NCBI RefSeq assembly: GCF_058153355.1
Contig: NZ_CM177019.1
Direction: 5' to 3' (one strand)
Length of the DNA stretch: 64,000 bases
The first letter of the stretch is position 1. Each line of letters begins with the position of its first letter. This document shows, piece after piece, positions 30,457-60,832 of this stretch. The notes beneath the pieces were generated by a model. It saw nothing but the letters and a program-made list of their open reading frames with translations, did not search any database and was not told where the DNA came from. Both the position numbers and the translations under genes were made by a program.

Positions 30457-31722
30457 TTAATCGCTCAGCGCATCCTGCAATATTTTCATTGCCGCATCGA
30501 ATTGCGCATCCGGGATGGTCAGCGGATACAGGAAGCGAATCACGTTGCCGTATGCGCCACAGGTCAGCAGGAGCAGCCCCTGCGCCAGCGCGCGTTGCTG
30601 GATTTTCTGTGCAATCGCCGCTGACGGCTCGTCCGTTTGCGGATCGTTAAACTCTGCCGCAATCATCGACCCCAGACCACGTACCGCCGCGATGGCCGGA
30701 ACGCTTTCTTTGGCATCAATCAACGTATTTGTCAGACGCTGGCCCAGTTGATTAGCGCGTTCGCAAAGGGATTCTTTGTCAATAATGTTGAGCACCGCGT
30801 GCGCGGCAGCCACCGCCAGCGGGTTCCCGGCGTAGGTACCACCAAGCCCGCCCGGCGCGGGCGCGTCCATAATATTCGCGTTACCGACCACGCCCGAAAG
30901 CGGCATCCCGCCCGCGAGGCTTTTCGCCATCGTCATTAAGTCCGGCTTATCGGCGTAGTGATCCATGGCAAACAGTTTACCGGTACGCGCAAAGCCGCTT
31001 TGCACTTCATCGGCAATCATCACAATACCGTGCTCGTCGCACAGGCGGCGAATGGCGGCAACCAGCTCTTTTGGCGCAACGTTGAAACCGCCTTCGCCCT
31101 GCACCGGTTCGAAAATAATCGCCGCCACCTGCTTCGCTTCAATGTCCGATTTAAACAAGCGTTCGATGGCATCGAGGGAGTCCTGCGTTGAAACGCCATG
31201 TAAATCTGACGGATAAGGTACGTGATACACCGAACCGGGGAACGGGCCGAAGCCGATTTTGTACGGCGCGACCTTTCCGGTCAGCGCCATGGTCATATAT
31301 GTACGACCGTGGAAGCCGCCGCTAAACGCAATCACGCCAGGGCGTCCGGTATGGGCGCGGGCGATTTTCACCGCGTTCTCCACCGCTTCCGCACCGGTGG
31401 TGAAGAACGCAGTTTTAGCCTGCCCGCTCACCGGGGCAAGGGCGTTGATTTTCTCCGCCAGGGTGACGTAGCTTTCATACGGCACAATCTGATACGCCGT
31501 GTGGGTAAACTGTTGCAATTGCTGCTCCACCGCCGCGACCAGATCAGGGTGGCGATGCCCGGTATTCAGCACCGCAATGCCTGCGGCGAAATCGATATAT
31601 TCGTTGCCCTCTACATCCTTCAGCGTGGCGTTTTCTGCCGACTGGGCGAAGAAGTTACACATCACGCCAACCCCGCGTGGGGTAGCAGAAAGACGACGCT
31701 GATGGAATTCATTGTTGCTCAT
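30457..31722 (-). CDS. puuE: 4-aminobutyrate aminotransferase (PLP-dependent)
   Basis: 421-aa ORF MSNNEFHQRRLSATPRGVGVMCNFFA... Confidence 0.9.
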   Translation of the reverse strand: MSNNEFHQRRLSATPRGVGVMCNFFAQSAENATLKDVEGNEYIDFAAGIAVLNTGHRHPDLVAAVEQQLQQFTHTAYQIVPYESYVTLAEKINALAPVSGQAKTAFFTTGAEAVENAVKIARAHTGRPGVIAFSGGFHGRTYMTMALTGKVAPYKIGFGPFPGSVYHVPYPSDLHGVSTQDSLDAIERLFKSDIEAKQVAAIIFEPVQGEGGFNVAPKELVAAIRRLCDEHGIVMIADEVQSGFARTGKLFAMDHYADKPDLMTMAKSLAGGMPLSGVVGNANIMDAPAPGGLGGTYAGNPLAVAAAHAVLNIIDKESLCERANQLGQRLTNTLIDAKESVPAIAAVRGLGSMIAAEFNDPQTDEPSAAIAQKIQQRALAQGLLLLTCGAYGNVIRFLYPLTIPDAQFDAAMKILQDALSD

Positions 31723-31759
31723 GTTTCACACCTTTTGACTCTTCACTGTTAATCGGAAA

Positions 31760-33040
31760 TTAAACGCCCAGACGATCGCGCAGGCTGTAATAAGCCGCGC
31801 CCATCGCGGTAAATGGCACGCGCAGCGTGCGCCCGCCGGGGAACGGGTAATGCGGCAGATTGGCGAAGGCGTCGAAGCGTTCGGCGTCACCGCGCAGCAG
31901 TTCAGCAATCAAACGCCCGGCAAGATGGGTACAGGTGACGCCGTGGCCGCTGTAACCCTGCATGTAATAGATGTTGGTATCAAGGCGACCGAACTGCGGC
32001 ATGCGCGACAAGGTCAGCAGGAAGTTGCCCGTCCAGCGGTAATCAATTTTCACGCCCTTCAGCTGCGGAAAGGTTTTCAGCAGTTTCGGCACAACAAGAC
32101 GCTCAACGTCATCCGGGTCGCGCGCGCCGTAGACCACGCCGCCGCCGTACAGCAGGCGGTTATCGGCAGTCAGGCGGTAGTAATCAAGAAGATAGTTACA
32201 GTCTTCCACACAGTAGTTTTTCGGGATCAGCGAACGGGCTAAATCTTCCGACAGCCGCTCGGTGGTGATCACCTGCGTGCCGCACGGCATGCTGCGTTTC
32301 GCCAGTTCCGGCTCTACTTTATCGCCCAGATACGCGTTGCCTGCGACAATCACATACTTCGCCGTCACCTGACCATTGGCCGTGCGCACAACGGCGGGCG
32401 TGGTGTGCTGGATCTGCGTCACCGCAGAAAGTTCATACACGCGCCCGCCGTTCAGGCGGATGGCATCGGCTTCACCAATGGCGAGGTTTAGCGGATGAAT
32501 ATGCCCACCGCTGTGATCCAGCAGCGCACCAGTGTAGCGATCGCTGGCGACCTCGCGGCGAATAGCGTTGGCGTCCAGCAGCTCCAGCTGTTTATTGCCG
32601 TAGCGTTCCCAGTTCTCTTTCTGCTCTTCGAGTGTGGCGAGTTGTTTATCATTCATCGCCACAAACAGGCCGCCGGGGCGATAGTCGCAGTCAATCTGAT
32701 AACGTTTGATACGTTCGCGGATGATCTCGCCACCCTCGAACATCATGCTGCCGAGCATACGGGCGGTATCCATGCCGTAGCTTTTTTCGATAACGTCGAT
32801 GTCGCGGCTGTAGGAGTTCACAAGCTGCCCGCCGTTGCGTCCGCTTGCGCCGAAGCCGATGCGTGAGGCTTCAAGAACCACCACGTCAAAGCCCGCTTCC
32901 GCCAGATGCAGCGCGGAGGAAAGCCCGGTATAGCCGCCGCCGACCACGCAAACGTCGCAGGAAATCGACTCATTCAGCGTGTCGAATGGCGCGTATTTAT
33001 TCGCACTGGCGGCGTAATAACTGCTAGTATGTTCGGTCAT
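31760..33040 (-). CDS. puuB: Gamma-glutamylputrescine oxidase (FAD-dependent)
   Basis: 426-aa ORF with FAD-binding motif VCVVGGGYTGLSSA. Confidence 0.9.
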   Translation of the reverse strand: MTEHTSSYYAASANKYAPFDTLNESISCDVCVVGGGYTGLSSALHLAEAGFDVVVLEASRIGFGASGRNGGQLVNSYSRDIDVIEKSYGMDTARMLGSMMFEGGEIIRERIKRYQIDCDYRPGGLFVAMNDKQLATLEEQKENWERYGNKQLELLDANAIRREVASDRYTGALLDHSGGHIHPLNLAIGEADAIRLNGGRVYELSAVTQIQHTTPAVVRTANGQVTAKYVIVAGNAYLGDKVEPELAKRSMPCGTQVITTERLSEDLARSLIPKNYCVEDCNYLLDYYRLTADNRLLYGGGVVYGARDPDDVERLVVPKLLKTFPQLKGVKIDYRWTGNFLLTLSRMPQFGRLDTNIYYMQGYSGHGVTCTHLAGRLIAELLRGDAERFDAFANLPHYPFPGGRTLRVPFTAMGAAYYSLRDRLGV

Positions 33041-33041
33041 T

Positions 33042-34529
33042 TCAGGCCTCCAGGCTTATCCAGATGGTTTTCAGTTCGGTGAATTTTTCAAGGGCGTGCA
33101 GGGATTTGTCGCGACCGTTGCCGCTCTGCTTATAGCCGCCAAACGGCACGGTCATATCACCGTCGTTGTAGTTATTGACGAAGACGGAACCGGCTTTCAG
33201 GCGGCGACTCATGCGGTGCGCGCGGGAGAGGTCGCGTGTCCATACCGCCGCGCCAAGTCCGTACTGGCTGTCGTTGGCAAGCTGTAGCGCCTGCTCTTCT
33301 GCTGTGAAACGCGTGACCACCAGCACCGGGCCGAAAATCTCTTCGCGGCTTAAGGACGCATTCGGGTCTACATCCACAAAGATGGTCGGGCCGATGGCGG
33401 CAGCCAGCTCGGCATTACGACCATCCAGCAGCAGTTGCCCTGTGCTTTCGCCTTCCCGAATAAAGCTATGCACCGAGTCAGCGTGGGCGCAGTCGATTAA
33501 GGTGCCCATGGTGGTCGCGGGATCAAGCGGATGCCCCGGCTGCCAGTTTTGCGCCTGCTGTTTTAACAGGGCTAAGAACTCATCGGCGATGCTCTCTTCC
33601 AGCAACAAACGCGTTCCGGCGATGCACACCTGGCCCTGGTTGTAGAAGATACCTGCGGCTGTCGCGCTCGCGGCTTTTTGCAGATCCGGGCAGTCAGCGA
33701 AAACGATGTTGGCGCTTTTGCCGCCCGCTTCCAGCCAGACGCGTTTCATGTTGCTGTCGCCTGCATCTTTCAGCAGTTGTTTCCCGGTGCGGGTCGAGCC
33801 GGTAAAGGCGATAACGTCGATATCGTTATGACGCGACAGCGCCTGGCCCGCTTCATGACCAAAACCCGTCACCACGTTCAGCACACCATCCGGCAGACCG
33901 GCCTCTTTCGCCAGCCCGGCAAGACGAATCGCACTAAGCGGTGATTTTTCCGACGGCTTCAGGACGACGCTGTTCCCTGACGCCAGCGCCGGGCCGAGTT
34001 TCCAGCAAGTCAGCAGCAGCGGGAAGTTCCACGGCACGATGGCGGCAATCACGCCGACCGGTTCACGCACGATCATCGCCAGCTCATGGCTACTGGTGGT
34101 CGCCACTTCGCCATACACTTTGTCGATCGCTTCGGCGTACCAGCGAATGGCGCGCGCCGCGCCGGGAATATCATCACGCAGACTGTGACGAATCGGTTTG
34201 CCGGTGTCGAGAGTTTCCAGCAGTGCCAGCTCTTCGGCGTTGGCTTCCATTAAATCGGCGAGTTTATTCAGTACCGCTTTACGTTTTGCCGGAGAAGAGT
34301 GTGACCAGTCGCCGCGTTCAAATACGCCGCGTGCTGCGCTCACCGCACGGTCGATATCGACGCTCTTGCCGCGGGCAATTTTCGCCAGCGGTGCCTGGGT
34401 GGCCGGATCAACGGTTTCAAAAGTTTCATTTTCCGCCGCAGCAGTATATTCACCGTTAATAAATAAGCGGGTTTCAATGGCGAGACTTAACGCTTTATCC
34501 TGCCAGTAAGCCAGATGATGAAAATTCAT
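33042..34529 (-). CDS. puuC: Gamma-glutamyl-gamma-aminobutyraldehyde dehydrogenase (ALDH family)
   Basis: ORF 33042..34625; start at MNFHHLAYWQDKA gives 495 aa. Confidence 0.9.
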   Translation of the reverse strand: MNFHHLAYWQDKALSLAIETRLFINGEYTAAAENETFETVDPATQAPLAKIARGKSVDIDRAVSAARGVFERGDWSHSSPAKRKAVLNKLADLMEANAEELALLETLDTGKPIRHSLRDDIPGAARAIRWYAEAIDKVYGEVATTSSHELAMIVREPVGVIAAIVPWNFPLLLTCWKLGPALASGNSVVLKPSEKSPLSAIRLAGLAKEAGLPDGVLNVVTGFGHEAGQALSRHNDIDVIAFTGSTRTGKQLLKDAGDSNMKRVWLEAGGKSANIVFADCPDLQKAASATAAGIFYNQGQVCIAGTRLLLEESIADEFLALLKQQAQNWQPGHPLDPATTMGTLIDCAHADSVHSFIREGESTGQLLLDGRNAELAAAIGPTIFVDVDPNASLSREEIFGPVLVVTRFTAEEQALQLANDSQYGLGAAVWTRDLSRAHRMSRRLKAGSVFVNNYNDGDMTVPFGGYKQSGNGRDKSLHALEKFTELKTIWISLEA

Positions 34530-45325: not shown

Positions 45326-45368
45326 GCACCTCATCCTGACAGGCCCCCCCCCTCAGGATGAGGTGTTC
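45326..45368. terminator. Bidirectional hairpin between the convergent sapF and MFS genes, with a C10 homopolymer in the loop
   Basis: cacctcatcctga - caggcccccccccc - tcaggatgaggtg; 13-bp perfect stem. Confidence 0.6.
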
Positions 45369-45369
45369 A

Positions 45370-46533
45370 TTACTTTTGATTGTCGATTCTGGTGAGAGCA
45401 ACCAGCAATGCCAGCGTATAACACACCGTAATTGCCAGACTCATTTTTAACAGTGTTTCTCCGCCAATTCCCGACAATGGCGCGGCTATACCGCCGAAGA
45501 CAAACATGCTCATCCCCATCAACGCAGACGCCGTTCCAGATTCCTGCGTCCCTACTGCACTCATAGCCTCTGCCCCGCCAACAGTGCCGATGCCGCTACA
45601 AAATGCGATGGTGAAAAATAATGCCACCAGTGCCGGAATGGGCAATTGTACCCATGCGCATAAGACCGTGAGCAATGCACACAAAATTGCCGCTATCAGG
45701 CCACCTCGCAACAATGTCATCGCGTTAATCCGTCGCGCCAGGCGCGAGAAGATCCATGAAGCAATGATAAGTCCGATGCCGTTAAGGCCAAACACCAGGC
45801 TAAATTGCATTGGACTAAAGCCAAATTCCTTCTGCAACACGAACGACGAAGAGCCGATATACGCAAACAAACCGGCCAGCATAAAACTTTGAATCAGGCA
45901 AAAGCGCATAAAAAGGCGGTTCTGCACCACGCTTCGTCCGGTTAATAGCAATGATGAGCCCCTTTTATTTTCTGGCAAGGTCTCATTAATAAATAACAGG
46001 CAGCCCAGCAACAGTACGGTGCTAATTTCAGCCATTACCCAGAATAAAGTGCGCCAGTCAAAAGTGCTAACAATGTACCCGCCCAGCACTGGCGACAACA
46101 CCGGTGCCAGGCCATTCACCGTCATTAACAGCGCAAAAAACTGGGTCAACGTTACTCCCTGATATTTGTCACGAGCAATAGAACGAGAGAGCACCGAACC
46201 ACCCGCCCCCGCGATCCCTTGAATAAAACGCCAGACCACCAGCCAGTAAATATTGTTCGTTGTCGCGCACAAAATGGAAGAAACAATAAACAATAGCAAC
46301 GACAAGATTAACGGACGTTTACGCCCTATTTTGTCGCTCAGAGGGCCAAATAACAGTTGTCCGACGCCAAGACCGATCAGTGATGCAGTCAGGGTTAATT
46401 GCGTTATGGTCGTGGTTGCCGCCAGTTGCTCAGACATCTCCGGCAAAGCCGGCAAATAAAGATCGGTACACATCGGGCCGATACCGGCTAAAAGACCAAG
46501 AATCAATGCCCATGAAAGAGAGACTCTAGCCAT
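45370..46533 (-). CDS. MFS transporter, 12-TM drug:H+ antiporter type (Bcr/CflA-like)
   Basis: 387-aa hydrophobic ORF with MFS signature region GPLSDKIGRKRP; last gene of a co-directional efflux cluster. Confidence 0.8.
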   Translation of the reverse strand: MARVSLSWALILGLLAGIGPMCTDLYLPALPEMSEQLAATTTITQLTLTASLIGLGVGQLLFGPLSDKIGRKRPLILSLLLFIVSSILCATTNNIYWLVVWRFIQGIAGAGGSVLSRSIARDKYQGVTLTQFFALLMTVNGLAPVLSPVLGGYIVSTFDWRTLFWVMAEISTVLLLGCLLFINETLPENKRGSSLLLTGRSVVQNRLFMRFCLIQSFMLAGLFAYIGSSSFVLQKEFGFSPMQFSLVFGLNGIGLIIASWIFSRLARRINAMTLLRGGLIAAILCALLTVLCAWVQLPIPALVALFFTIAFCSGIGTVGGAEAMSAVGTQESGTASALMGMSMFVFGGIAAPLSGIGGETLLKMSLAITVCYTLALLVALTRIDNQK

Positions 46534-46541
46534 ATTATTCC

Positions 46542-47915
46542 TTACTTGAGTGATGACATGCCGCCGCCCAGCGACTGCCAGAGCGTGATTCGGTTTGTAA
46601 AATCAGTCAGTTGCAGTGCCAGCAGCTCCTGCTGTGCGCTCCACAAGCTGCGCTGCGCCGTCAACACGGTCAGGTAATCACCAACACCCGCCTGATAGCG
46701 ACGCAAGCCAACATCGACCGTTTGTTGCTCAGCTTTAACATACTGGCGCTGTGCATCCAGTTGCTCTTCAAGCGTGGTCCGCCGCGCCAGTGCGTTAGCG
46801 ACATCTTTAAATGCGCTCTGAACGGTTTTTTCATAGGTGGCAATGAGCCCACGCTTTTGTGCTTCTGCGTAACGAAGCTGCGCCAGATTACTTCCGCCAG
46901 TGAACAGCGGTAATGTGACCGATGGTGCAAATGACCAGATCTGCATTCCGTGGCTGAACAACGACGACAATGCGTCACTGCCCACACCGGCACTGGCAGT
47001 CAGCGAAATCGTCGGGAAAAAGTTAGCCCGCGCCGCGCCAATATCTGCATTGGCGCTCTTCAAATTATGTTCCGCTTCCTGGATATCCGGGCGACGCAGC
47101 AGAACATCAGATGATACTCCCGCAGGAACCAGACTTATCATTTGTTCCGGCAGGCTTTCCAGTGTTCCCGGTAGCAGATTTTCCGCAAGCGTTGTACCTG
47201 CCAGTAAGTTCAGCGCATTTTTATCCTGCATCACTTGTGTCTGATAGCTGGCAACGCTGGCGCGCGCTTGCTGATAAACACTCATCGCCTCACTGACATC
47301 TGTCGCTGCCGCCGTGCCAACCTGTTGCTGGCGCTGGATAATTTTCAATGAGTTTTCTGCACTGGCCATCGTTTCTTTTGCCAGGGCCAGGTTGCTGTTA
47401 TCGGCCGCCAGTGTCAGCCAGGCGGTGCTGATTTCAGCAATCAGCGTTAAACGAGTGTTCTGGGCTGTAAATTCACTGGCAAGCCAGGTTTCCCGCGCCG
47501 CCCGAGATAAACTCTGATTACGACCAAACAGATCTAACGTATAACTGGACACCGTGCCGTCAGCCTCGGCAGTTGTTCCCGTACCATTCGCCAGCGAACG
47601 ACTGCGAGTCGAACTTAAGGCCGCATTCACCGTCGGAAATAACGACGCATTAGTTTGCCCATAGAGCGCCCGTGCTGAGTCAATATCAGCAATCGCTTTT
47701 TGCACATCGCGGTTACTGTTCAGTGCAATGGTTACTACCTGCTGCAATCGGGGATCGTGAATCACCTGCTGCCAGTCATGGCTGATTGCCTTCCCCTGGC
47801 CCTGTGCTCCCGGCAAGGTCGCCGGGATTGGGGATTCAGGCGTACTGTAGTGAGGATCGAGCGAGACACATCCCGCACTCAACAACACCAGAAAAATAAG
47901 AGAACGACGCAACAT
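46542..47915 (-). CDS. Outer-membrane efflux lipoprotein (NodT/OprM family)
   Basis: 457-aa ORF with lipobox (LLSAGCVSL) and OEP-type repeats. Confidence 0.85.
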   Translation of the reverse strand: MLRRSLIFLVLLSAGCVSLDPHYSTPESPIPATLPGAQGQGKAISHDWQQVIHDPRLQQVVTIALNSNRDVQKAIADIDSARALYGQTNASLFPTVNAALSSTRSRSLANGTGTTAEADGTVSSYTLDLFGRNQSLSRAARETWLASEFTAQNTRLTLIAEISTAWLTLAADNSNLALAKETMASAENSLKIIQRQQQVGTAAATDVSEAMSVYQQARASVASYQTQVMQDKNALNLLAGTTLAENLLPGTLESLPEQMISLVPAGVSSDVLLRRPDIQEAEHNLKSANADIGAARANFFPTISLTASAGVGSDALSSLFSHGMQIWSFAPSVTLPLFTGGSNLAQLRYAEAQKRGLIATYEKTVQSAFKDVANALARRTTLEEQLDAQRQYVKAEQQTVDVGLRRYQAGVGDYLTVLTAQRSLWSAQQELLALQLTDFTNRITLWQSLGGGMSSLK

Positions 47916-47918
47916 AAC

Positions 47919-50900
47919 TTACTCCTGACGGCGCGGTTTACCGGCAAACAAACGTTTCACCAGTACAAAAAACAGAGGAACGAAGAAAATGGCCAGTAAT
48001 GTAGCGGTCAGCGTGCCGCCAATAATGCCCGTACCAATGGCGATGCGGCTGTTCGCCCCTGCACCGGTTGCTATCGCCAGCGGCATTACCCCCGCAATAA
48101 ACGCCAGCGAGGTCATGATGATTGGGCGTAAACGAGTCTGCGCCGCGCGTAATGCCGCACGACTCAAGGAATAACCCTCTGCAACCGCCGCTTCAGCAAA
48201 TTCCACAATCAGAATGGCGTTTTTCGACGACAAGCCGATAGTAGTTAATAGCGCTACCTGGAAGTAAACGTCGTTGTTTAAATCACGCATCCAGGCCGCC
48301 AGCGCCGCGCCAAGAAGCCCCAGAGGGATCACCAGAATGACCGAGAACGGGACTGACCAGCTTTCGTACAGTGCTGCAAGGCAGAGGAAAACCACCAGAA
48401 TAGAAACTGCATACAGACTTAATGCCTGACCGCTCGCCAGTTTCTCCTGCAATGACAAACCACTCCAGGCCCAGGTTGTTCCCGCAGGAAGACTGTTTGC
48501 CAGTTCCTCCATTTTTGTCATTGCATCGCCGGAACTAAAGCCAGTCGCGTTTTCGCCCTGAATTTCATAGGCTGCCGAGCCGTTGTAGCGCACCAGTCTT
48601 TCCGGTCCATACTGCCAGCGGGTGGTCGCAAAAGCAGAGAATGGTGTCATGGCGTTATCGCTACCGCGCACAAACCATTTACCTAAGTCTGACGGCGCAG
48701 AACGAAATTCGCTGTCGCCCTGAATGTAGACTTTTTTCACACGACCACGGTCAATAAAGTCATTCACATAAGTACCGCCCCACGCACTGGACAGGGTGTC
48801 GGTGACATCATTCAAACTCAACCCTAATGACACCGCTTTATTGCTATCAATATCTACCTGCAATTGCGGCATTTGTGGCAAATCATTGGCGCGTACAGAA
48901 TGTAACTCCGGACTTTGATTCGCTTTTTCTATCAACTGATTACGCATTTGCAGCAGTGTTTCACGATCGGTTCCACCGTTAGCTAACAATTCAAACGTAA
49001 AACCATTGCTTTGGCCCAGCCCATCAACGGCTGGCGGCGTCATCGCAAATACCGTCGCATCACGAATTGTGCCCAGCTCTTTGGTAGCCCGTAGGGCGAT
49101 AGCCTGGGCGGTGTTTTCTGCCCCTTTACGTTGAGACCAGTTTTTCAACGAAACAAACGCCATCCCGGTGTTCTGTCCGCTGCCGCTAAAACTGAAACCA
49201 TCAACGGTAAAAATGACATCGGTATTTGCTTTCTCGTTAATCAGGAACCAGTCAACAATCTGGCGATTCACTTCTGCTGTACGGGCAGCGGTCGCCCCGG
49301 CCGGCAGCGTGTACTGCACCATGATTTCGCCCTGGTCTTCAGTGGGTAAGAAACTGCCCGGCAGTTTCCACATCATCAGGGCCATTCCACCACCCAGCAC
49401 GACATAAAGCCCCATCGTTCGGGCTGCACGGCGCAGGACATAAATTACGCCTCGCTGATATTTATCTTCAGTACGGCGGTAAAAGCGGTTAAATGCGCCG
49501 AAAAAGCCTTTTTTATGTGGCGGAACATGCTGGAGGACGGAACCGCACAGGGCGGGAGTCAAGGTCAATGCCACCACCACGGAAAGCAGCATTGCGGAGA
49601 TGATGGTGATGGAGAACTGACGATAAATTACGCCCGTAGATCCCCCAAAGAAGGCCATCGGCAGGAATACGGCTGACAACACCAGCGCAATGGCAACCAG
49701 TGCGCCAGAAATCTCGCCCATTGATTTTTCCGTGGCTTCACGCGCGGGCAACCCTTCGTCACGCATAATGCGTTCGACGTTCTCCACCACCACAATGGCA
49801 TCGTCCACCAGCAAGCCGATCGCCAGCACCATTGCAAACAACGTCAGGGTATTAATCGAATAGCCAAACAACGCAAGAACGCCGAATGTGCCCAGCCAAA
49901 CGACGGGGACAGCTAACGCCGGAATCAGTGTGGCACGCAGGTTTTGCAGGAATAAATACATCACGCAAACCACCAATACGATGGCTTCAAACAGCGTCTG
50001 AATTACGTCCTCTACGGAGATTTTAATAAATTCAGTGCTGTCTTTCGGGTATGCGATGTCGTATCCCTGCGGCATGTTCCGCTGGAATTCGGCAATCTTA
50101 TCCTTGACCAGCGTCGCCGTATTCAGCGCATTCGCACCGGGCGAAAGCATTACAGCAACCCCGGCAGACGGGTGACCGTTAAGTTTGCCGATAGCGGTAT
50201 AATCTTCACTGCCCATCTCAACGCGAGCCACATCTTTTATACGAACAACTGCGCCGTCTGACTGGCTTTTCACGATAATATTTTTGAACTGATCCACCGT
50301 CTGCAAGCGAGACTGCGCACGTACCGTTGCGGTCAGTTGCTGAGTATCCGGTGAAGGCAATGCCCCTATTTTCCCGGCAGTAACCTGCACGTTTTGCGCT
50401 TCAATAGCACTTTGCACGTCTGAAGGCATCAGCGAGTAAGACGCCAGTTTGGCCGGGTCGAGCCAGATGCGCATAGCGTATTCCGCGCCAAAGACTTGCA
50501 GACTCCCCACACCTTCAACACGCGCCAGGGGGTCCTGAACGTTACTGACCAGCCAGTCGGCGATATCCGAACTGGAGGCTTTGTCAGTGGTGTCATACAC
50601 GGCAGCAATCAGCAAAAAGTTGCTTTGTGATTTCTCCACCGTAACACCCGTTTGCTGCACTTCGCTGGGTAGGCGCGACTCCGCCTGCTGAATTTTATTC
50701 TGCACCTGAACCTGTGCAGTATCTGGATCGGTACCTTGTTCAAAGGTCACATTAATACTGACCGAACCATCAGAGCTACTGGTTGAGCTGAAATAGAGTA
50801 AATTATCAAGCCCAGTGAGTTGTTGCTCGATAACCTGAGTCACGCTGTTCTCCAGCGTTTCGGCAGAAGCACCAGTATAAGTGGCTGAAATTTTAATGGT

Positions 50901-51026
50901 CGGCGGTGCAACGTCAGGATATTGCGCGACGGGTAATGTGCGAATAGCCAGAATCCCCGCCAACATAATCAAAATGGCGATAACCCAGGCAAAGACCGGG
51001 CGGCGAACAAAAAAGCGCGAAAACAT
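47919..51026 (-). CDS. RND multidrug efflux permease (AcrB/HAE1 family)
   Basis: 1035-aa ORF MFSRFFVRRPVFAWVIAILIMLAGILAI...; size and N-terminus typical of AcrB-like pumps. Confidence 0.9.
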   Translation of the reverse strand: MFSRFFVRRPVFAWVIAILIMLAGILAIRTLPVAQYPDVAPPTIKISATYTGASAETLENSVTQVIEQQLTGLDNLLYFSSTSSSDGSVSINVTFEQGTDPDTAQVQVQNKIQQAESRLPSEVQQTGVTVEKSQSNFLLIAAVYDTTDKASSSDIADWLVSNVQDPLARVEGVGSLQVFGAEYAMRIWLDPAKLASYSLMPSDVQSAIEAQNVQVTAGKIGALPSPDTQQLTATVRAQSRLQTVDQFKNIIVKSQSDGAVVRIKDVARVEMGSEDYTAIGKLNGHPSAGVAVMLSPGANALNTATLVKDKIAEFQRNMPQGYDIAYPKDSTEFIKISVEDVIQTLFEAIVLVVCVMYLFLQNLRATLIPALAVPVVWLGTFGVLALFGYSINTLTLFAMVLAIGLLVDDAIVVVENVERIMRDEGLPAREATEKSMGEISGALVAIALVLSAVFLPMAFFGGSTGVIYRQFSITIISAMLLSVVVALTLTPALCGSVLQHVPPHKKGFFGAFNRFYRRTEDKYQRGVIYVLRRAARTMGLYVVLGGGMALMMWKLPGSFLPTEDQGEIMVQYTLPAGATAARTAEVNRQIVDWFLINEKANTDVIFTVDGFSFSGSGQNTGMAFVSLKNWSQRKGAENTAQAIALRATKELGTIRDATVFAMTPPAVDGLGQSNGFTFELLANGGTDRETLLQMRNQLIEKANQSPELHSVRANDLPQMPQLQVDIDSNKAVSLGLSLNDVTDTLSSAWGGTYVNDFIDRGRVKKVYIQGDSEFRSAPSDLGKWFVRGSDNAMTPFSAFATTRWQYGPERLVRYNGSAAYEIQGENATGFSSGDAMTKMEELANSLPAGTTWAWSGLSLQEKLASGQALSLYAVSILVVFLCLAALYESWSVPFSVILVIPLGLLGAALAAWMRDLNNDVYFQVALLTTIGLSSKNAILIVEFAEAAVAEGYSLSRAALRAAQTRLRPIIMTSLAFIAGVMPLAIATGAGANSRIAIGTGIIGGTLTATLLAIFFVPLFFVLVKRLFAGKPRRQE

Positions 51027-52147
51027 CAGGCATTGCCTCCATTAGCCTGAACTTCAACAGCCTTGACGGTCTGCCCTGAAGTGACTTTGGCAGAACCTTC
51101 AACAATCAGTCGGTCGCCGTTGTGCAGGCCGTTCAGCACCAGCCATTTATCACCATACGTTTCTCCCGTTTCGAGCGTTCGCTGCTCTACTTTATTGTCT
51201 TTATTCACCACCAGCGCAGTTGCATTGCCTTTAGCATCGCGCGTAACGCCCTGTTGAGGCGCGAGAATAGCGTTTTCCATCACGCCTTCATCGACACGAG
51301 CGCGAACAAACATTCCCGGTAATAACTGCTGTTGTGGATTGGGGAAAATTGCCCGTAATGTCACCGAACCGGTAGACTCATCCACCGCGACTTCGGTGAG
51401 TTCCAGACGCCCTTTTTCGCTGTAGGTTGTGCCATCTTCCAGAATAAGTGAGACGCTCATGGTGTCACTGTTGGTCGCCAGTGACTGTTTACGCAGACGT
51501 AATAAATCGACACTGGAGCGAGTGAGGTCGACATACATTGTATCCAGACCACGAATAGTCGTTAACGCTGTATCCTGCGACGCGGTCACCAGTGCGCCAG
51601 GGGTTACCGACGAAATACCAATACGCCCCGAAATCGGTGCGGTTACCGTGGTCCAGTCAAGATTAATGCGCGCAGTTTCCAGTGCGGCTTTTTTCGCCTC
51701 TACACTGGCTTTATCTTGTGCACAGGTAGACTGAGCATCATCAGCATCCTGTTGTGAAACACCATTCTCTTTCACCAGTCGGGCATAACGCTGCGCTTTC
51801 TGGCAATCGGCTTTTACCAGTGCCTGTGCTTGTTGTAATGCTGCCCGGGCTTCATTCCATGCAGCCTGATAACTGGCCGCATCAATCTGGTAGAGAGGCT
51901 GTCCAGCCTTGACCAGATCACCTTCCTTAAATAAGCGTTTCTGGATAATTCCCCCAACTTGCGGACGTACTTCAGCACTGAGCGCAGCACTGGTGCGTCC
52001 GGTTAATTCACTGACTACCGAAACCGGTTGAGATTTGAGCGTAACAACGCCGACTTCTGTTTCTGACGGGGATGAATTGTTACTTTGCGTATTATCACAA
52101 CCCGATAAGAGCAGCATTGCCACTACAGATGTTGCTATATACTTCAT
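51026..52147 (-). CDS. Periplasmic adaptor (membrane fusion protein, AcrA-like) of the RND pump
   Basis: ORF 51026..52180; preferred start MKYIATSVVAMLLLSGC (lipobox) at 52147, preceded by GGAG; stop overlaps the RND start. Confidence 0.85.
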   Translation of the reverse strand: MKYIATSVVAMLLLSGCDNTQSNNSSPSETEVGVVTLKSQPVSVVSELTGRTSAALSAEVRPQVGGIIQKRLFKEGDLVKAGQPLYQIDAASYQAAWNEARAALQQAQALVKADCQKAQRYARLVKENGVSQQDADDAQSTCAQDKASVEAKKAALETARINLDWTTVTAPISGRIGISSVTPGALVTASQDTALTTIRGLDTMYVDLTRSSVDLLRLRKQSLATNSDTMSVSLILEDGTTYSEKGRLELTEVAVDESTGSVTLRAIFPNPQQQLLPGMFVRARVDEGVMENAILAPQQGVTRDAKGNATALVVNKDNKVEQRTLETGETYGDKWLVLNGLHNGDRLIVEGSAKVTSGQTVKAVEVQANGGNA

Positions 52148-52174
52148 TATTTTCTCCAGGGTGAGAAATACCCT

Positions 52175-52275
52175 CCTCATTGAAATTAATGAGGATATGT
52201 CAGGGATATTCAGTTATAACGAACCCGCATCGCGAAATGAATTTCGCAATGAAATAAGGGGGATTAATATCCCCC
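52175..52275. promoter_or_regulatory. Cluster of three inverted repeats between the TetR gene and the MFP gene (candidate operators / pump promoter)
   Basis: tcctcatt-gaaatt-aatgagga (52174-52195), gcgaaat-ga-atttcgc (52232-52247), ggggga-ttaata-tccccc (52258-52275). Confidence 0.5.
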
Positions 52276-52295
52276 GCTATTGGTTAATTCTGTTC

Positions 52296-52862
52296 TTATT
52301 TATTTATCAACATACTAACAATATCCTGATATATTTCCTGCAGATGTTGTGGATCGCTTTTTTGCGGTGTTAAACGACGATAAACCGTACCTTCCATCAT
52401 GGTAGCAAACACTTCAACGCAGCAATGAATGTGATCGTCGCTAAGATGGGGATGCATTCTTTTCATATGTGCACAACCGTTAGCGAACATTCTGGCGTCA
52501 GCTTCTTCAAGCATTGCCATAACCCGCGGGTTGCGTGTGGCTTCTGCAGCCACTTCCAGCATCAGCGCGTCGTCGTCCTCATTTAAGGATTTACGCAAGG
52601 CAAGGACTTCCGGGAAGTGATCGGTACGCGCGTCAATGTCCATTTGGGCAATACGAAAGTCGATGATACGGCGAACCATCTCTTCAATAATGGCGTCTTT
52701 GTTGGCGAAGTAACGATATATCTGACCCACGCTAAGCTGAGCTTCGCTGGCAATTTGCGACATACTGGCGGCATGAAATCCGCAGCGACGAAAACACCGA
52801 CGGGCGGCGTTAATGATTTCATCCTGACGCTGTTTGTGGCGTATCTCCAGCTTGCTGGTCAT
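52296..52862 (-). CDS. TetR/AcrR-family transcriptional regulator
   Basis: ORF 52296..52961; preferred start MTSKLEIRHKQRQDEIINAARRCFRRCGFHAASMSQIASEAQLSVGQIYRYFANK (HTH near N-terminus), preceded by AGGAGA; co-directional with the pump genes. Confidence 0.75.
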   Translation of the reverse strand: MTSKLEIRHKQRQDEIINAARRCFRRCGFHAASMSQIASEAQLSVGQIYRYFANKDAIIEEMVRRIIDFRIAQMDIDARTDHFPEVLALRKSLNEDDDALMLEVAAEATRNPRVMAMLEEADARMFANGCAHMKRMHPHLSDDHIHCCVEVFATMMEGTVYRRLTPQKSDPQHLQEIYQDIVSMLINK

Positions 52863-52888
52863 TTCTGTCTCCTGGCCTATCACTTGGT

Positions 52889-52904
52889 GAGAATGATCAT
52901 TCTC
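52889..52904. promoter_or_regulatory. 16-bp perfect palindrome gagaatgatcattctc upstream of the TetR gene (candidate autoregulatory operator)
   Basis: Perfect dyad seen directly, 27 bp upstream of the preferred TetR start. Confidence 0.5.
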
Positions 52905-53339
52905 ATTTTTGCTAATTATACGTTTCTCCAAAGTAATGGAAAGTATTTTTATCTTATTCATGGTGCATATTCTGATAATGAAGAGATTGTGGAGATTCTG
53001 TGAAGATAGTTGACAATATTAAGTTGGGGTCAATTCATCAGAAAGGCAGCGACTTGTTGTCGCCAGTTCTGTTTTCATCATCAAACTTATCGGAGCTAAT
53101 ACGAATAGTTTCATAGTCAGATTCTATAAGATATTTCCCCAACCTACCCCTTGCAGGCGTCAAGAGTAGATAACGCAAAATGCTCTGTACCGCAGCTTCT
53201 CTCCGGTACAGAAAGCGCAACTATAGCCACCCACAGCCAGGTTGATTATAATAACCGTTTATCTGTTCGTACTGTTTACTAAAACGACGAATCGCCTGAT
53301 TTTCAGGCACAACAAGCATCAACAATAAGGATTAAAGCT

Positions 53340-54128
53340 ATGGGTTTTCTTTCCGGTAAGCGCATTCTGGTAACCGGTGTTGCCAGCAAACTGTCCATCG
53401 CCTACGGTATCGCTCAGGCGATGCACCGCGAAGGAGCTGAACTGGCATTCACCTACCAGAACGACAAACTGAAAGGCCGCGTAGAAGAATTTGCCGCTCA
53501 ATTGGGTTCTGACATCGTTCTGCAGTGCGATGTTGCAGAAGATGCCAGCATCGACACCATGTTCGCTGAACTGGGTAAAGTTTGGCCGAAATTTGACGGC
53601 TTTGTACATTCCATTGGTTTTGCACCGGGCGATCAGCTGGATGGTGACTATGTTAACGCCGTTACTCGTGAAGGCTTCAAAATTGCCCACGACATCAGCT
53701 CCTACAGCTTCGTTGCAATGGCAAAAGCTTGCCGCTCCATGCTGAATCCGGGCTCTGCCCTGCTGACCCTTTCCTACCTTGGCGCTGAGCGCGCTATCCC
53801 GAACTACAACGTTATGGGTCTGGCAAAAGCGTCTCTGGAAGCGAACGTGCGCTATATGGCGAACGCGATGGGTCCGGAAGGTGTGCGTGTTAACGCCATC
53901 TCTGCTGGTCCGATCCGTACTCTGGCGGCTTCCGGTATCAAAGACTTCCGCAAAATGCTGGCTCATTGCGAAGCCGTTACCCCGATTCGCCGTACCGTTA
54001 CTATTGAAGATGTGGGTAACTCTGCGGCATTCCTGTGCTCCGATCTCTCTGCCGGTATCTCCGGTGAAGTGGTCCACGTTGACGGCGGTTTCAGCATCGC
54101 TGCAATGAACGAACTCGAACTGAAATAA
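53340..54128 (+). CDS. fabI: Enoyl-ACP reductase (NADH), FabI
   Basis: 262-aa [43 protein letters not shown]...; recognised as E. coli FabI. Confidence 0.95.
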
Positions 54129-54180
54129 TTTGACGGCGGTTTCAGCATCGCTGCAATGAACGAACTCGAACTGAAATAAT
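54079..54180 (+). repeat. Perfect 51-bp tandem duplication covering the last 16 codons and stop of fabI plus 2 bp
   Basis: Unit ttgacggcggtttcagcatcgctgcaatgaacgaactcgaactgaaataat occurs at 54079-54129 and again at 54130-54180 with no mismatch. Confidence 0.9.
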
Positions 54181-54322
54181 CGTTCTGTTGGTCAAGATGG
54201 GCGGCGTTCTGCCGCCCATCATCTCTGTTATACCTTTCTGATATTTGTTATCGCCGATCCGTCTTTCTCCCCTTCCCGCCTTGCGTCAGGATAACGATTT
54301 CCTTTACGACCAAGGAGCGCCC

Positions 54323-55450
54323 ATGGAACAACGCCACATCACCGGCAAAAGCCACTGGTATCATGAAACACAATCCAGTACTGCGGAGAATGACGTTCTG
54401 CCTCTGGTCCCGGAAGCCGCAAAGGTTCGCGATCCCTTTCTGCTCGACGTGATCCTTGATGAAGAAACGCTGGCCCCCTTCCTTTCATGGATGGTCCCGG
54501 CGCGCATTCTTGCAGCGGAGTTGTTCCCTGACCAGCTTACTGTGACCCGTTCACAGACCTTCACCGCTTATGAACGCTTGTCGACGGCCCTGACGGTTGC
54601 TCAGGTTTGCGGCGTCCAGCGGTTATGTAACTACTATTCGGCGCGACTTACGCCGCTCCCCGGGCCTGATTCCTCCAGGGAAAGTAATCATCGGTTGGCA
54701 CAAATCACGCAATATGCCCGCCAACTGGCCAGCTCGCCTTCTATTATCGACAACCGATCGCGCCAACATCTGAATGACGTCGGTCTTACTGCCTGGGACT
54801 GTGTGATAATCAACCAAATAATTGGTTTTATTGGCTTTCAGGCGCGGACAATTGCCACATTTCAGGCTTATCTCGGGCATTCGGTACGCTGGTTACCCGG
54901 TCTGGAGATACAAAACTACGCCGACGCGTCACTGTTTGCTGATGAATCAATACGCTGGCGAAGCAGCTATGAGGTGGAAAAACTACCTGAAGAGCACACA
55001 AAAAGTTCTAATGCAGAACTTTGCCAACTGACCGAAACACTCTCTCTCCACCCTATTTCACTTTCCCTTCTCGAAAAGTTGTTAAACAGCACACGGGTCA
55101 ATACACAGCCGGATAATAAGCTTGCGGCGTTGTTATGCGCGCGTATTAATGGCAGTCCTGCTTGTTTTGCCGCCTGTATGAATTCATCAAATGAATATAA
55201 AAAAATCAGCCCCCTTCTGCGCAAGGGCGAAAATGAAATTAACCAATGGGCTGACCGTGATTCTGTTGAGCGCGCTACCGTTCAGGCGATACAATGGCTG
55301 ACCCGAGCACCCGATCGCTTTAGCGCCGCCCAGTTCAGCCCATTACTCGAACACGAAAAATCATCAACGCAGATTATTAATCTGCTGGTATGGAGCGGGC
55401 TGTGTGGCTGGATAAATCGCTTAAAAATCGCGTTGGGTGAGACATATTAA
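54323..55450 (+). CDS. yciW: YciW (AhpD/carboxymuconolactone-decarboxylase-like putative oxidoreductase)
   Basis: ORF 54245..55450; start at [17 protein letters not shown] gives 375 aa; position between fabI and rnb. Confidence 0.85.
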
Positions 55451-55517
55451 CCTTGCTGCGTCAGACAGATTCGCGTAAAACTGTCAGCCGCTCTAATGGC
55501 CACCAAAATAGACAATT

Positions 55518-57452
55518 ATGTTTCAGGACAACCCGCTGCTAGCGCAGCTTAAACAGCAACTGCATTCCCAGACGCCACGCGCTGAAGGGGTGGTAAAAGC
55601 CACAGAAAAAGGCTTTGGCTTCCTGGAAGTCGACGCGCAAAAAAGTTATTTCATTCCGCCGCCGCAGATGAAAAAAGTCATGCATGGCGACCGAATTATC
55701 GCAGTGATCCACAGTGAAAAAGATCGTGAATCCGCAGAGCCAGAAGAACTGGTTGAACCGTTTCTGACTCGTTTCGTGGGTAAAGTTCAGGGCAAAAATG
55801 ACCGTCTGGCCATCGTTCCTGATCATCCACTCTTAAAAGACGCCATTCCTTGCCGCGCAGCCCGTGGCCTGAACCACGAGTTTAAAGAAGGCGACTGGGC
55901 GGTTGCCGAAATGCGCCGTCATCCGCTGAAAGGCGATCGTTCTTTCTATGCTGAACTAACACAATACATCACTTTTGGTGACGACCACTTTGTACCGTGG
56001 TGGGTTACCCTGGCGCGCCATAACCTGGAAAAAGAAGCACCAGACGGCGTCGCTACCGAAATGCTCGATGAAGGTCTGGTTCGTGAAGATCTGACAGCGC
56101 TGGATTTTGTCACCATCGACAGTGCCAGCACAGAAGATATGGATGACGCCCTTTTCGCTAAGGCGTTGCCGGATGACAAACTTCAGCTGATTGTGGCGAT
56201 TGCCGATCCAACCGCGTGGATTGCTGAAGGCAGCAAGCTGGACAAAGCCGCGAAAATTCGCGCATTCACCAACTATCTGCCTGGCTTCAACATCCCTATG
56301 CTGCCTCGCGAGCTTTCTGACGATCTCTGCTCACTGCGCGCCAATGAAGTCCGCCCGGTACTGGCATGCCGCATGACGCTCTCCGCTGATGGCACCATTG
56401 AAGATAATATCGAATTCTTTGCCGCCACCATCGAATCCAAAGCGAAGCTGGTGTATGACCAGGTCTCTGACTGGCTGGAAAATACCGGTGACTGGCAGCC
56501 TGAAAGTGAAGCAATTGCCGAACAAGTCCGTTTGTTAGCGCAAATTTGCCAACGCCGTGGCGAGTGGCGTAATAACCACGCACTGGTATTTAAAGATCGC
56601 CCGGATTACCGCTTTATTCTCGGTGAAAAAGGTGAAGTGCTGGATATCGTCGCCGAGCCTCGTCGCATTGCCAATCGTATCGTCGAAGAAGCGATGATTG
56701 CCGCGAACATTTGTGCGGCCCGCGTACTGCGCGATAAGCTCGGTTTTGGCATCTATAACGTGCATATGGGCTTTGATCCGGCGAATGCCGACGCGCTGGC
56801 GGCGTTGCTGAAAACCCACGGTCTGCATGTCGATGCCGAAGAAGTGCTCACGCTTGACGGTTTCTGCAAACTGCGTCGTGAACTGGATGCGCAACCAACT
56901 GGTTTCCTCGACAGCCGCATTCGTCGCTTCCAGTCATTTGCTGAAATTAGCACTGAACCCGGTCCTCACTTTGGCCTCGGTCTGGAAGCATACGCCACCT
57001 GGACTTCGCCAATCCGTAAATATGGCGACATGATCAACCACCGTCTGCTGAAAGCGGTTATCAAAGGCGAAACTGCGACGCGTCCGCAGGATGAAATCAC
57101 TGTCCAAATGGCCGAGCGTCGCCGTCTCAACCGAATGGCAGAACGTGATGTTGGCGACTGGTTATACGCACGCTTCCTGAAAGACAAAGCCGGGACCGAC
57201 ACCCGTTTCGCGGCGGAAATTGTCGATATCAGCCGTGGCGGCATGCGTGTGCGTTTGGTTGATAACGGCGCTATCGCCTTTATTCCAGCACCTTTCTTAC
57301 ACGCTGTGCGCGATGAACTGGTTTGCAGCCAGGAAAACGGCACTGTACAAATTAAAGGTGAAACGGCTTACAAAGTGACCGACGTTATTGACGTCACCAT
57401 TGCCGAAGTCCGCATGGAAACCCGCAGCATTATTGCACGCCCGGTCGCGTAA
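55518..57452 (+). CDS. rnb: Exoribonuclease II (RNase II)
   Basis: 644-aa [44 protein letters not shown]...; RNB and S1 domains. Confidence 0.95.
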
Positions 57453-57462
57453 TCTCCTTTCA

Positions 57463-57495
57463 CGGCCCATTCCTCATGAATGGGCCGTTTATTTC
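57463..57495 (+). terminator. Rho-independent terminator of rnb
   Basis: cggcccatt-cctcatga-atgggccg hairpin followed by tttatttcc. Confidence 0.7.
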
Positions 57496-57686
57496 CCCGC
57501 TCCACCTTCGCCATATCCCGGCAGATTTTTAACTGACTTTCGTTTGAAAACTGGCGTTTTTCCAAAACTGGATTACAAATAAATAGATAAAAAAAACAAT
57601 GCGTTTAGCCGCCGTTAATTTCATGTAAGTCATGTTGTTCCTTTTATTTAACCGCGGACTCCGCTGTTAACCGGAGGATATGCATC

Positions 57687-59672
57687 ATGAAAACCGTTAG
57701 GGAGTCCACAACGTTGTACAACTTTCTCGGATCGCACAATCCATACTGGCGGTTGACGGAAAGCAGCGATGTTTTGCGCTTTTCTACCACCGAAACCACA
57801 GAACCTGAACGTACGTTGCAGTTATCTGCCGAACAGGCTGCTCGCATCAGGGAAATGACGGTCATCACTTCCAGCCTGATGATGAGTCTGACCGTCGATG
57901 AAAGCGATCTTTCTGTGCATCTGGTAGGACGAAAAATCAATAAACGGGAATGGGCTGGCAACGCGTCGGCATGGCATGACACACCGGCGGTTGCTCGTGA
58001 TTTATCACACGGGCTTTCCTTTGCTGAGCAGGTAGTTTCTGAAGCACATTCCGCAATAGTGATTCTCGACAGTCGGGGGAATATCCAACGCTTCAATCGG
58101 TTATGTGAAGATTACACAGGGTTGAAAGAACACGACGTCATTGGGCAAAGCGTGTTTAAACTGTTTATGAGCCGTCGTGAAGCTGCGGCATCCAGGCGCA
58201 ATAACCGTGTATTTTTTCGAAGCGGCAATGCATATGAAGTCGAACTGTGGATACCAACACGTAAAGGCCAGCGGCTGTTTCTGTTTCGCAATAAATTTGT
58301 CCACAGCGGCAGTGGCAAGAACGAGATTTTTTTAATCTGTTCCGGCACCGACATTACCGAAGAGCGCCGCGCTCAGGAGCGACTGCGTATTCTGGCAAAT
58401 ACCGACAGTATCACCGGACTGCCGAATCGTAACGCAATGCAGGAGTTAATCGATCACGCCATTAATCAGGCAGATAACAATAAAGTTGGGGTTGTGTATC
58501 TTGATTTGGATAATTTTAAAAAGGTCAACGACGCTTATGGGCATTTGTTTGGTGACCAGCTATTACGCGAAGTGTCATTGGCCATTTTAAGCTGTCTCGA
58601 ACATGATCAGGTGTTGGCGCGTCCAGGTGGCGATGAGTTTCTGGTACTGGCATCCAATACCTCACAAAGCGCGCTGGAAGCAATGGCATCACGAATTTTG
58701 ACCCGCTTACGACTCCCCTTCCGCATTGGTTTAATTGAAGTTTATACCAGCTGTTCAGTGGGTATTTCACTCTCTCCCGAACATGGTTCGGACAGCGCGG
58801 CTATTATTCGTCACGCCGACACAGCAATGTACACAGCGAAGGAAGGCGGACGAGGACAATTTTGCGTTTTTACCCCAGAAATGAATCAGCGGGTATTTGA
58901 ATATCTCTGGCTGGATACCAACTTGCGTAAAGCACTGGAAAACGATCAGTTGGTTATTCACTATCAACCGAAAATCACCTGGCGTGGCGAAGTACGCAGT
59001 CTGGAAGCTTTAGTACGTTGGCAGTCACCTGAACGTGGGTTGATTCCACCGTTGGACTTTATTTCCTACGCCGAAGAGTCAGGGCTAATTGTGCCTTTAG
59101 GCCGTTGGGTGATTCTCGATGTCGTACGCCAGGTGGCGAAGTGGCGGGATAAAGGCATTAACCTGCGAGTGGCGGTAAACATTTCTGCACGTCAGCTCGC
59201 CGATCAAACCATTTTCACCGCCCTGAAACAGGTTCTCCAGGAACTCAATTTTGAATACTGCCCTATTGATGTTGAACTGACGGAGAGCTGCCTGATTGAG
59301 AATGATGAACTGGCACTGTCTGTTATTCAACAATTTAGCCAACTAGGTGCGCAAGTGCATCTGGACGATTTTGGTACCGGCTACTCTTCACTTTCGCAAC
59401 TGGCGCGCTTTCCGATCGATGCGATTAAACTTGACCAAGTTTTTGTTCGAGATATTCACAAACAACCTGTATCGCAGTCGCTGGTCCGGGCGATCGTCGC
59501 TGTGGCCCAGGCATTGAATCTTCAGGTGATCGCTGAAGGAGTGGAGAGTAAAAAGGAAGATGCTTTTTTAACCAAGAACGGGATCAATGAGCGGCAAGGA
59601 TTTTTGTTTGCCAAACCGATGCCCGCCGTCGCCTTCGAACGTTGGTATAAACGCTATCTGAAGCGCGCATAA
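57687..59672 (+). CDS. pdeR: c-di-GMP phosphodiesterase PdeR (PAS-GGDEF-EAL; formerly gmr/yciR)
   Basis: 661-aa ORF; degenerate-looking GGDEF region (RPGGDEF) and EAL domain visible. Confidence 0.9.
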   Translation: MKTVRESTTLYNFLGSHNPYWRLTESSDVLRFSTTETTEPERTLQLSAEQAARIREMTVITSSLMMSLTVDESDLSVHLVGRKINKREWAGNASAWHDTPAVARDLSHGLSFAEQVVSEAHSAIVILDSRGNIQRFNRLCEDYTGLKEHDVIGQSVFKLFMSRREAAASRRNNRVFFRSGNAYEVELWIPTRKGQRLFLFRNKFVHSGSGKNEIFLICSGTDITEERRAQERLRILANTDSITGLPNRNAMQELIDHAINQADNNKVGVVYLDLDNFKKVNDAYGHLFGDQLLREVSLAILSCLEHDQVLARPGGDEFLVLASNTSQSALEAMASRILTRLRLPFRIGLIEVYTSCSVGISLSPEHGSDSAAIIRHADTAMYTAKEGGRGQFCVFTPEMNQRVFEYLWLDTNLRKALENDQLVIHYQPKITWRGEVRSLEALVRWQSPERGLIPPLDFISYAEESGLIVPLGRWVILDVVRQVAKWRDKGINLRVAVNISARQLADQTIFTALKQVLQELNFEYCPIDVELTESCLIENDELALSVIQQFSQLGAQVHLDDFGTGYSSLSQLARFPIDAIKLDQVFVRDIHKQPVSQSLVRAIVAVAQALNLQVIAEGVESKKEDAFLTKNGINERQGFLFAKPMPAVAFERWYKRYLKRA

Positions 59673-59819
59673 GTAGATGAATATATATACTTAGCGATAT
59701 ATTCTGTAATTATATATCGTATTCCCGGATGATAATTAACCGTTGCTGTTAAACACTTCTCTTTTAGCGGCAATTTTTGCATTATTCATTTTCTCCCTTT
59801 TGCTATAAGGATGTCCTTG

Positions 59820-59993
59820 ATGTCTGAATTTGATGCCCAGCGCGTTGCCGAACGTATTGATATTGTGTTAGATATCCTTGTGGCAGGCGATTACCACTCT
59901 GCGATCCATAATCTCGAGATACTTAAAGCAGAACTCTTGCGCCAGGTTGCTGAATCTACGCCAGACATCCCGAAGGCACCGTGGGAGATTTAA
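59820..59993 (+). CDS. yciZ: Small protein YciZ (UPF0509)
   Basis: ORF 59811..59993; start at [28 protein letters not shown] gives 57 aa. Confidence 0.8.
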
Positions 59994-60082
59994 CAATCGT
60001 GCCTTCAGGTTTTCCTATTTGAGGATGCCCGGCGCGTCAGTATTTTTTTATTAAGTATTATAACGTTATAAGAATTACAGCG

Positions 60083-60832
60083 ATGAATTCCCGACAACAA
60101 ACTATTCTACAGATGGTCATTGACCAGGGTCAGGTTAGCGTAACCGATCTGGCAAAAGCCACTGGAGTTTCTGAAGTTACCATTCGCCAGGATCTCAACA
60201 CCCTCGAAAAACTGAGTTACCTCCGCCGTGCACATGGCTTTGCAGTTTCGCTTGATAGTGATGACGTCGAAACCCGTATGATGAGCAACTATACACTGAA
60301 GCGTGAACTCGCCGAGTTTGCCGCGTCACTGGTTCAACCGGGCGAAACTATCTTTATCGAAAATGGCAGCAGCAATGCCCTGCTCGCCCGGACTCTGGGC
60401 GAGCAGAAGAAAAATGTCACTATCATCACGGTCAGCAGCTATATTGCACATTTGCTGAAAGACGCGCCTTGTGAAGTCATTTTACTCGGTGGCGTGTACC
60501 AGAAAAAAAGCGAAAGTATGGTTGGCCCTTTGACACGTCATTGCATCCAACAGGTGCATTTCAGCAAGGCATTTATTGGTATTGATGGCTGGCAGCCTGA
60601 AACTGGGTTTACCGGTCGCGATATGATGCGTACCGATGTGGTCAATGCCGTGCTGGAAAAAGAGTGCGAAGCGATAGTCCTGACTGACAGTTCGAAATTT
60701 GGTGCTGTACATTCATACTCCATCGGCCCCGTTGAGCGATTCAATCGCGTGATTACCGATTCGAAAATACGCGCCAGCGATCTGATGCATCTTGAGCACA
60801 GTAAACTCACCGTTCACGTCGTTGACATTTAA
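60083..60832 (+). CDS. yciT: DeoR-family transcriptional regulator
   Basis: 249-aa ORF with N-terminal HTH ([35 protein letters not shown]) and sugar-binding-type C-terminal domain. Confidence 0.85.

Follow-up and report, generated by a model that had tools for sequence, protein, structure and literature searches.

The window analyzed here, a stretch of 64,000 nucleotides of E. coli DNA, contains a perfect 51-bp tandem duplication at the 3' end of fabI, the gene for enoyl-ACP reductase. This is very probably a real mutation of recent and single origin, inherited clonally, that arose without microhomology and is most likely neutral.

Structure of the duplication

The two units of 51 bp, 54079–54129 and 54130–54180, are identical and lie head to tail when the sequence is read directly. 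Tandem Repeats Finder (TRF) reported the same interval (54079–54180), with a period of 51, 2.0 copies, 100% match and no indels, and this array was the only tandem repeat that TRF found in the whole 64-kb window. By both TRF and direct reading the units adjoin with no intervening sequence. A perfect adjacent 51-mer would arise by chance in 64 kb with a probability of about 64000 x 4^-51, which is negligible. The duplication is present in the sequence and its exact structure is established, which confirms the initial annotation of a perfect, mismatch-free 51-bp tandem duplication across the fabI stop codon. The features of the region are as follows, all on the + strand:

53340–54128, +: fabI, enoyl-ACP reductase, 262 aa, intact, with its TAA at 54126–54128 (from the ORF list; fabI / WP_000506490.1 in collinear relatives)
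54079–54129, +: duplication copy 1, made up of the final 50 nt of fabI with its TAA and 1 further nt (from TRF, the sequence and a 51-bp alignment gap)
54105–54154, +: novel junction at 54129/54130, the diagnostic 50 nt of the duplication, present only in contigs AAXEGZ010000010.1 (L012) and DAXYJU010000008.1 (L026)
54130–54180, +: duplication copy 2, the same as copy 1, non-coding, in the fabI 3' UTR (TRF 100% match, in-frame translation)
54196–54230, +: predicted intrinsic fabI terminator, with an 11-bp stem, 8 G-C pairs and a T-rich tail (from a terminator scan)
54323–55450, +: yciW, 375 aa (from translation and the gene tables of relatives)

Each unit consists of the last 50 nt of fabI – two nucleotides of the Val247 codon, 15 sense codons and the TAA – and one downstream nucleotide. 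The division into 49 bp of fabI and 2 bp beyond it that had been proposed was slightly off, since fabI extends from 53340 to 54128. With a length of 17 codons (51 nt), copy 2 is in frame behind the fabI TAA, and in translation a hypothetical readthrough of that TAA would add 16 further residues from copy 2 and then reach a stop.

fabI, yciW and the spacer between them

The assignments of fabI and yciW that were made from the sequence agree with the RefSeq annotation of collinear relatives, in which the gene order is fabI, then yciW and rnb. The translation of FabI is identical to that of the single-copy strains N96 and 2020CK-00188. FabI still ends at residue 262 because its stop codon lies within the duplicated segment, and the earlier reading that copy 1 terminates the gene normally and copy 2 is non-coding was borne out. 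So was the lengthening of the spacer: the distance from the fabI stop to yciW is 194 nt in the window and 143 nt in the relatives.

Position 54098, within the unit, is the site of a common synonymous C/T polymorphism (Ile253, ATC/ATT) that divides E. coli roughly in half. The T is carried by O157:H7, which has the normal single copy, and by many other genomes. Hundreds of contigs from k-mer graphs of mixed samples break at 54097 because of this polymorphism.

Distribution of the duplication

The relatives of the window have a single copy at the orthologous site. The alignment to strain N96, the closest relative at the locus, has a clean 51-bp gap and near-identity elsewhere, and O157:H7 and a metagenomic E. 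coli contig have the same 51-bp gap relative to the window. Full-length related loci were gathered via exact matches to neighboring proteins; the single copy is found in 40 of them and the duplication in two. The nearest single-copy relatives are about 0.3–0.8% diverged from the window.

A 50-nt probe of the novel junction had no matches in 5,426 complete E. coli genomes. The probe was centered on 54129/54130 and reached 25 nt to either side, too short a flank for a single-copy genome to seed a match. A 50-nt control probe of the ordinary single-copy junction between the end of fabI and the downstream sequence matched 4,057 genomes. A 701-nt probe (53800–54500) matched 5,422 genomes, and among the matches listed all span about 648–650 bp in two pieces, the single-copy length. 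Beyond the complete E. coli genomes, the exact 40-nt junction had no matches in 100,044 species-representative genomes and JGI metagenome contigs, nor did a gapped pattern for this core with periods of 36–66 in the same two collections.

Seven of the matches of the 701-nt probe were on plasmid-labelled records, and one complete genome had two places that matched. The plasmid labels may be mistaken, the records being pieces of chromosome, or the records may be large secondary replicons with a fabI gene.

The duplication is derived and rare. It is confined to datasets with the rare allele of an RND permease that marks this clone, and we infer a single origin in one E. coli lineage. The initial annotation had held that a mismatch-free duplication must be either recent or an assembly artefact. 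Recent origin is supported by the absence of the duplication from the 5,426 complete genomes and the 40 related loci and by its presence only in the clone with the rare permease allele. The same absence excludes the suggestion that the duplication could be an old feature present in all E. coli, and a widespread or ancient element was rejected more generally, as the junction and the gapped pattern are missing from the complete E. coli genomes, the species representatives and the metagenomes. A VNTR or minisatellite was also rejected: the only copy numbers seen are one, in nearly all strains, and two, in this clone, and the gapped pattern found no other arrays. From the sequences, the age of the duplication would be bounded only loosely, by the identity of the copies, the confinement to one clone, and the 0.3–0.8% divergence of the nearest relatives.

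Evidence from independent assemblies and reads

The duplication is found in two further assemblies. In L012 (GCA_015332025.1), contig AAXEGZ010000010.1 of 109,835 bp is 100.000% identical to the window over 52518–60452, with the duplication included. By coordinate arithmetic the window corresponds to positions of about 2,525–66,524 of this contig, and the duplication lies approximately 56.6 kb inside what is a primary draft contig. In L026 (GCA_043012465.1), contig DAXYJU010000008.1 of 104,314 bp, in the opposite orientation, contains both units and the junction about 53 kb inside it. Over 13 kb, the sole difference between L026 and the window is a poly-C tract of C8 rather than C9.

A third line of evidence comes from Logan contigs, which are k=31 assemblies of raw reads. 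The RND-permease allele of the window is rare – found in only three contigs in the contig collection, among them that of L026 and Logan contig SRR8656992_151. Logan contig SRR8656992_151, which occurs identically in two samples, has no mismatches to the window and ends at window position 54108, base 30 of the unit. This is where the duplication predicts an end: a k=31 unitig would have to stop at unit base 30 if two different bases precede the first 31-mer of the unit, the G of the left flank and the T at the end of the unit. Six downstream proteins were tried as a route to the right-hand Logan contig, and each was too common, occurring in 170 to more than 1000 contigs.

The weight of this break depends on how often contigs end at the same place for other reasons. 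A lookup of the truncated product FabI(1–256) found 34 blocks, mostly in contigs of less than 2 kb, from mixed samples and other haplotypes. Control truncations at 255 aa and 252 aa gave 48 and 388 blocks, respectively, the latter because of the common C/T SNP at 54098. The background of contigs ending at a given fabI codon is therefore about 30–50 blocks in the whole collection, and contigs of unrelated haplotypes also break at 54108/54109, with the frequency of this background. The break in SRR8656992 is nonetheless meaningful, in that it coincides with the predicted base in the one sample that has the rare haplotype of the clone; it is supportive of the duplication rather than proof of it.

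An extra copy could also have come from the assembler, from a k-mer overlap between contigs, from imperfect trimming at circularization or from a polishing error, and be absent from the cells. False duplications from untrimmed contig overlaps or circularization joins are like this one in their perfect identity, in forming without microhomology, and in being about as long as common k-mers, and none of the complete genomes has the junction. The two NCBI assemblies may moreover share overlapping read sets or an assembler. Such an artefact is nevertheless very unlikely here. Unlike untrimmed overlaps, the site is interior to both primary contigs and not at a contig end, a scaffold join or a circularization point. 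The two assemblies that carry it were deposited separately and differ at the poly-C tract. A different assembler (Logan, k=31) working from raw reads broke exactly at the base where a true repeat would break it. There are no other perfect duplications of equal length in the 64-kb window, and the assembly is otherwise clean – over about 35 kb it differs from the closest complete genome by only four small indels, with no homopolymer noise. The artefact half of the initial alternative is thus largely excluded by the position within contigs, the second assembly, and the read-derived break at the predicted base.

Origin of the duplication

The periodicity extends over exactly 102 nt, which leaves no microhomology between the endpoints. 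The bases that flank the units differ at both comparisons (G54078/T54129 and T54130/C54181). The nearest shared motifs, two copies of CGTT, are 53 bp apart instead of 51, and would give a 53-bp unit with another junction. Slippage between short direct repeats, mediated by microhomology, is not supported, as there is no direct repeat at the endpoints and the periodic stretch is exactly two units. An origin by a hairpin-assisted template switch has no support either; folded as DNA, the ancestral interval gains no stability over shuffled sequence (z=-0.04). A scar of engineering with recombineering arms of about 50 nt was also considered and rejected, since this is a wild-type lineage that is 0.3–0.8% from every complete genome and there is no cassette or scar sequence.

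We infer that the mutational mechanism was a duplication during replication or repair. The proposed history is that a one-time error of replication or repair, illegitimate in that it used no microhomology, duplicated 51 bp in one E. coli lineage. The first copy would have gone on terminating FabI at residue 262, since the duplicated segment carries the stop, and the second would have ended up untranslated, inserted after the stop codon and before an unchanged intrinsic terminator. The duplication would be tolerated because it spans the stop codon, and would stay in the clone as an inherited marker of the strain, to be lost in time through slippage or decay. RecA-independent slippage removes perfect tandem repeats of this length at appreciable rates, so the duplication should be evolutionarily unstable.

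Spontaneous short tandem duplications, formed by slippage or illegitimate recombination, are catalogued in lacI mutation spectra and in studies of RecA-independent rearrangement of tandem repeats. The fabI duplication is a new instance of this well-known kind of mutation. It is like the spontaneous short duplications of E. coli in being head to tail without a spacer, perfectly identical, tens of bp long, private to a lineage and collapsible by slippage. Short tandem duplications in E. coli usually have microhomology at their ends, many of them using a direct repeat of a few bp, and the absence of microhomology makes the fabI event less typical. It also differs in spanning a stop codon, so that an essential gene is unaltered.

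The ends of genes are also duplicated where prophages and genomic islands integrate, as at icd with e14 or phage 21. The fabI duplication could on this basis be the footprint of a lost site-specific element that integrated at the 3' end of the gene and carried a replacement tail. The likeness lies in the C-terminal codons and stop of a housekeeping gene occurring twice in direct orientation, much as in the attL/attR arrangement at icd. In contrast to such sites, the fabI copies are strictly adjacent with no element between them, both match the host allele at every base, and there is no integrase nearby. The neighbors are fabI and yciW only, and no insert was found between these genes in the 40 full-length related loci that were read directly. 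Site-specific excision would in any case leave one copy, not two. The probability of an integrative footprint is accordingly close to nil, and a spontaneous tandem duplication is the reading preferred here.

One contig of another haplotype ends at the same base. L045 (Logan contig ERR10936298_192, 22,751 bp), from an assembly that resembles that of an isolate, is 98.5% identical to the window, has T at 54098, and ends at the equivalent of window position 54108, unit base 30. This is likely due to chance, given the background of 30–50 blocks per codon, though it could mark a second, independent duplication whose left endpoint is the same. That the duplication recurs in other lineages is unsupported: the contig ends at 54108/9 match background fragmentation, and the ATT allele that they share is simply common.

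Predicted consequences for the fabI transcript

The stem of the predicted terminator is at 54196–54220, and the distance from the stop codon to this stem has increased from 16 nt ancestrally to 67 nt. The terminator hairpin is the same in RNA folds of the one-copy and two-copy sequences, in both minimum-free-energy and centroid structures. The two-copy fold is predicted to have one extra instance of a local hairpin that is already present in the coding copy. The initial suggestion that the duplication could alter the structure of the fabI mRNA 3' end is not supported by these folds, which predict an unchanged terminator and one added local hairpin. The region upstream of yciW is unchanged because the duplication sits upstream of the terminator.

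Scans for new functional sequence were negative. No promoter-like site was found in the new sequence, and no Rfam family scored at or above its gathering score in the fabI-yciW spacer. The only new ORFs created by the junction are spurious – a 7-codon ORF (MNELELK) with no Shine-Dalgarno sequence, and an antisense ORF of 61 aa. A literature search found no paper that describes a duplication at the 3' end of fabI or a regulatory element between fabI and yciW, and the literature on overlap artefacts yielded nothing specific to this case.

A match to PrrB/RsmZ (PrrB_RsmZ) in Rfam is located at 54194–54311 on the - strand, overlapping the terminator and the spacer. Its score of 17 bits is below the gathering score of 44 (E=0.44), and it was judged to be due to chance.

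The duplication is most likely selectively neutral, judging from the sequence and the predicted folds, because it leaves FabI, the terminator and the promoter region of yciW as they were. It could instead be real and consequential, with the shift of the terminator and the untranslated stem-loop altering the stability or termination of the fabI mRNA 3' end and hence the dosage of FabI, and it could then have been under selection, for example by triclosan or another FabI inhibitor. The extra hairpin in the two-copy fold, which would never be unwound by ribosomes, is consistent with this, as are the altered spacing between stop and terminator and the inheritance of the duplication in at least two datasets of the clone. 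The terminator hairpin itself, however, is predicted to be unchanged, and the spacer has no known RNA element. The duplication is limited to one small clone with no recurrence in 5,426 genomes, while a beneficial change so easily reached might be expected to recur. The negative literature search also argues against an effect, as do the mechanisms of triclosan resistance known to us: FabI substitutions, promoter-up mutations and gene amplification. An effect on FabI dosage is on balance quite improbable. A broader proposal – that the 3' end of fabI is prone to duplication and the insert is not neutral, with a longer, more structured 3' UTR raising mRNA stability and FabI dosage and so giving a small selectable advantage such as tolerance of FabI inhibitors – is highly improbable; its sole hint is the contig of ERR10936298 that ends at the same base. 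Neutrality remains the preferred reading.

Other features of the window

The poly-C tract that differs between the assemblies is at 45344–45352 (within 45330–45363). The sapF and MFS efflux genes converge here, and the tract forms the loop of the inverted repeat that lies between them, CCTCATCCTGA...TCAGGATGAGG; the inverted repeat at 45330–45363 is probably a bidirectional terminator. The length of the tract varies: it is C9 in the window, C8 in both other datasets of the same clone (L026 and L027) and C7 in strain 2020CK-00188.

Between sapF and fabI is an efflux island of about 7.6 kb (45370–52961), with all of its genes on the - strand: an MFS transporter, an outer-membrane factor, an RND permease, a periplasmic adaptor and a TetR regulator. 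The RND permease is a 1035-aa allele. Other E. coli lineages have a DUF559 gene in place of this island.

Two segments of the puu region are found in the window and missing from the closest complete genome, 2020CK-00188: a 3.4-kb segment at 30594–33968 and a 13-bp stretch in puuD (35650). In 2020CK-00188, the annotation gives puuD as frameshifted and the adjoining genes as incomplete, and it is the window that appears to have the region intact.

Significance

The duplication itself carries little biological weight. If the insert did alter the expression of fabI, it would be relevant to triclosan susceptibility; nothing that was found points there. As to method, the point where a k=31 de Bruijn contig breaks off can be used at the level of reads to support or discount a suspected short tandem duplication, as long as the background rate of breaks is controlled. 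The unique 50-nt junction is usable as a PCR or k-mer marker for the clone. The duplication also illustrates that a structural mutation in an essential gene can be tolerated if the segment that is duplicated brings its own stop codon.
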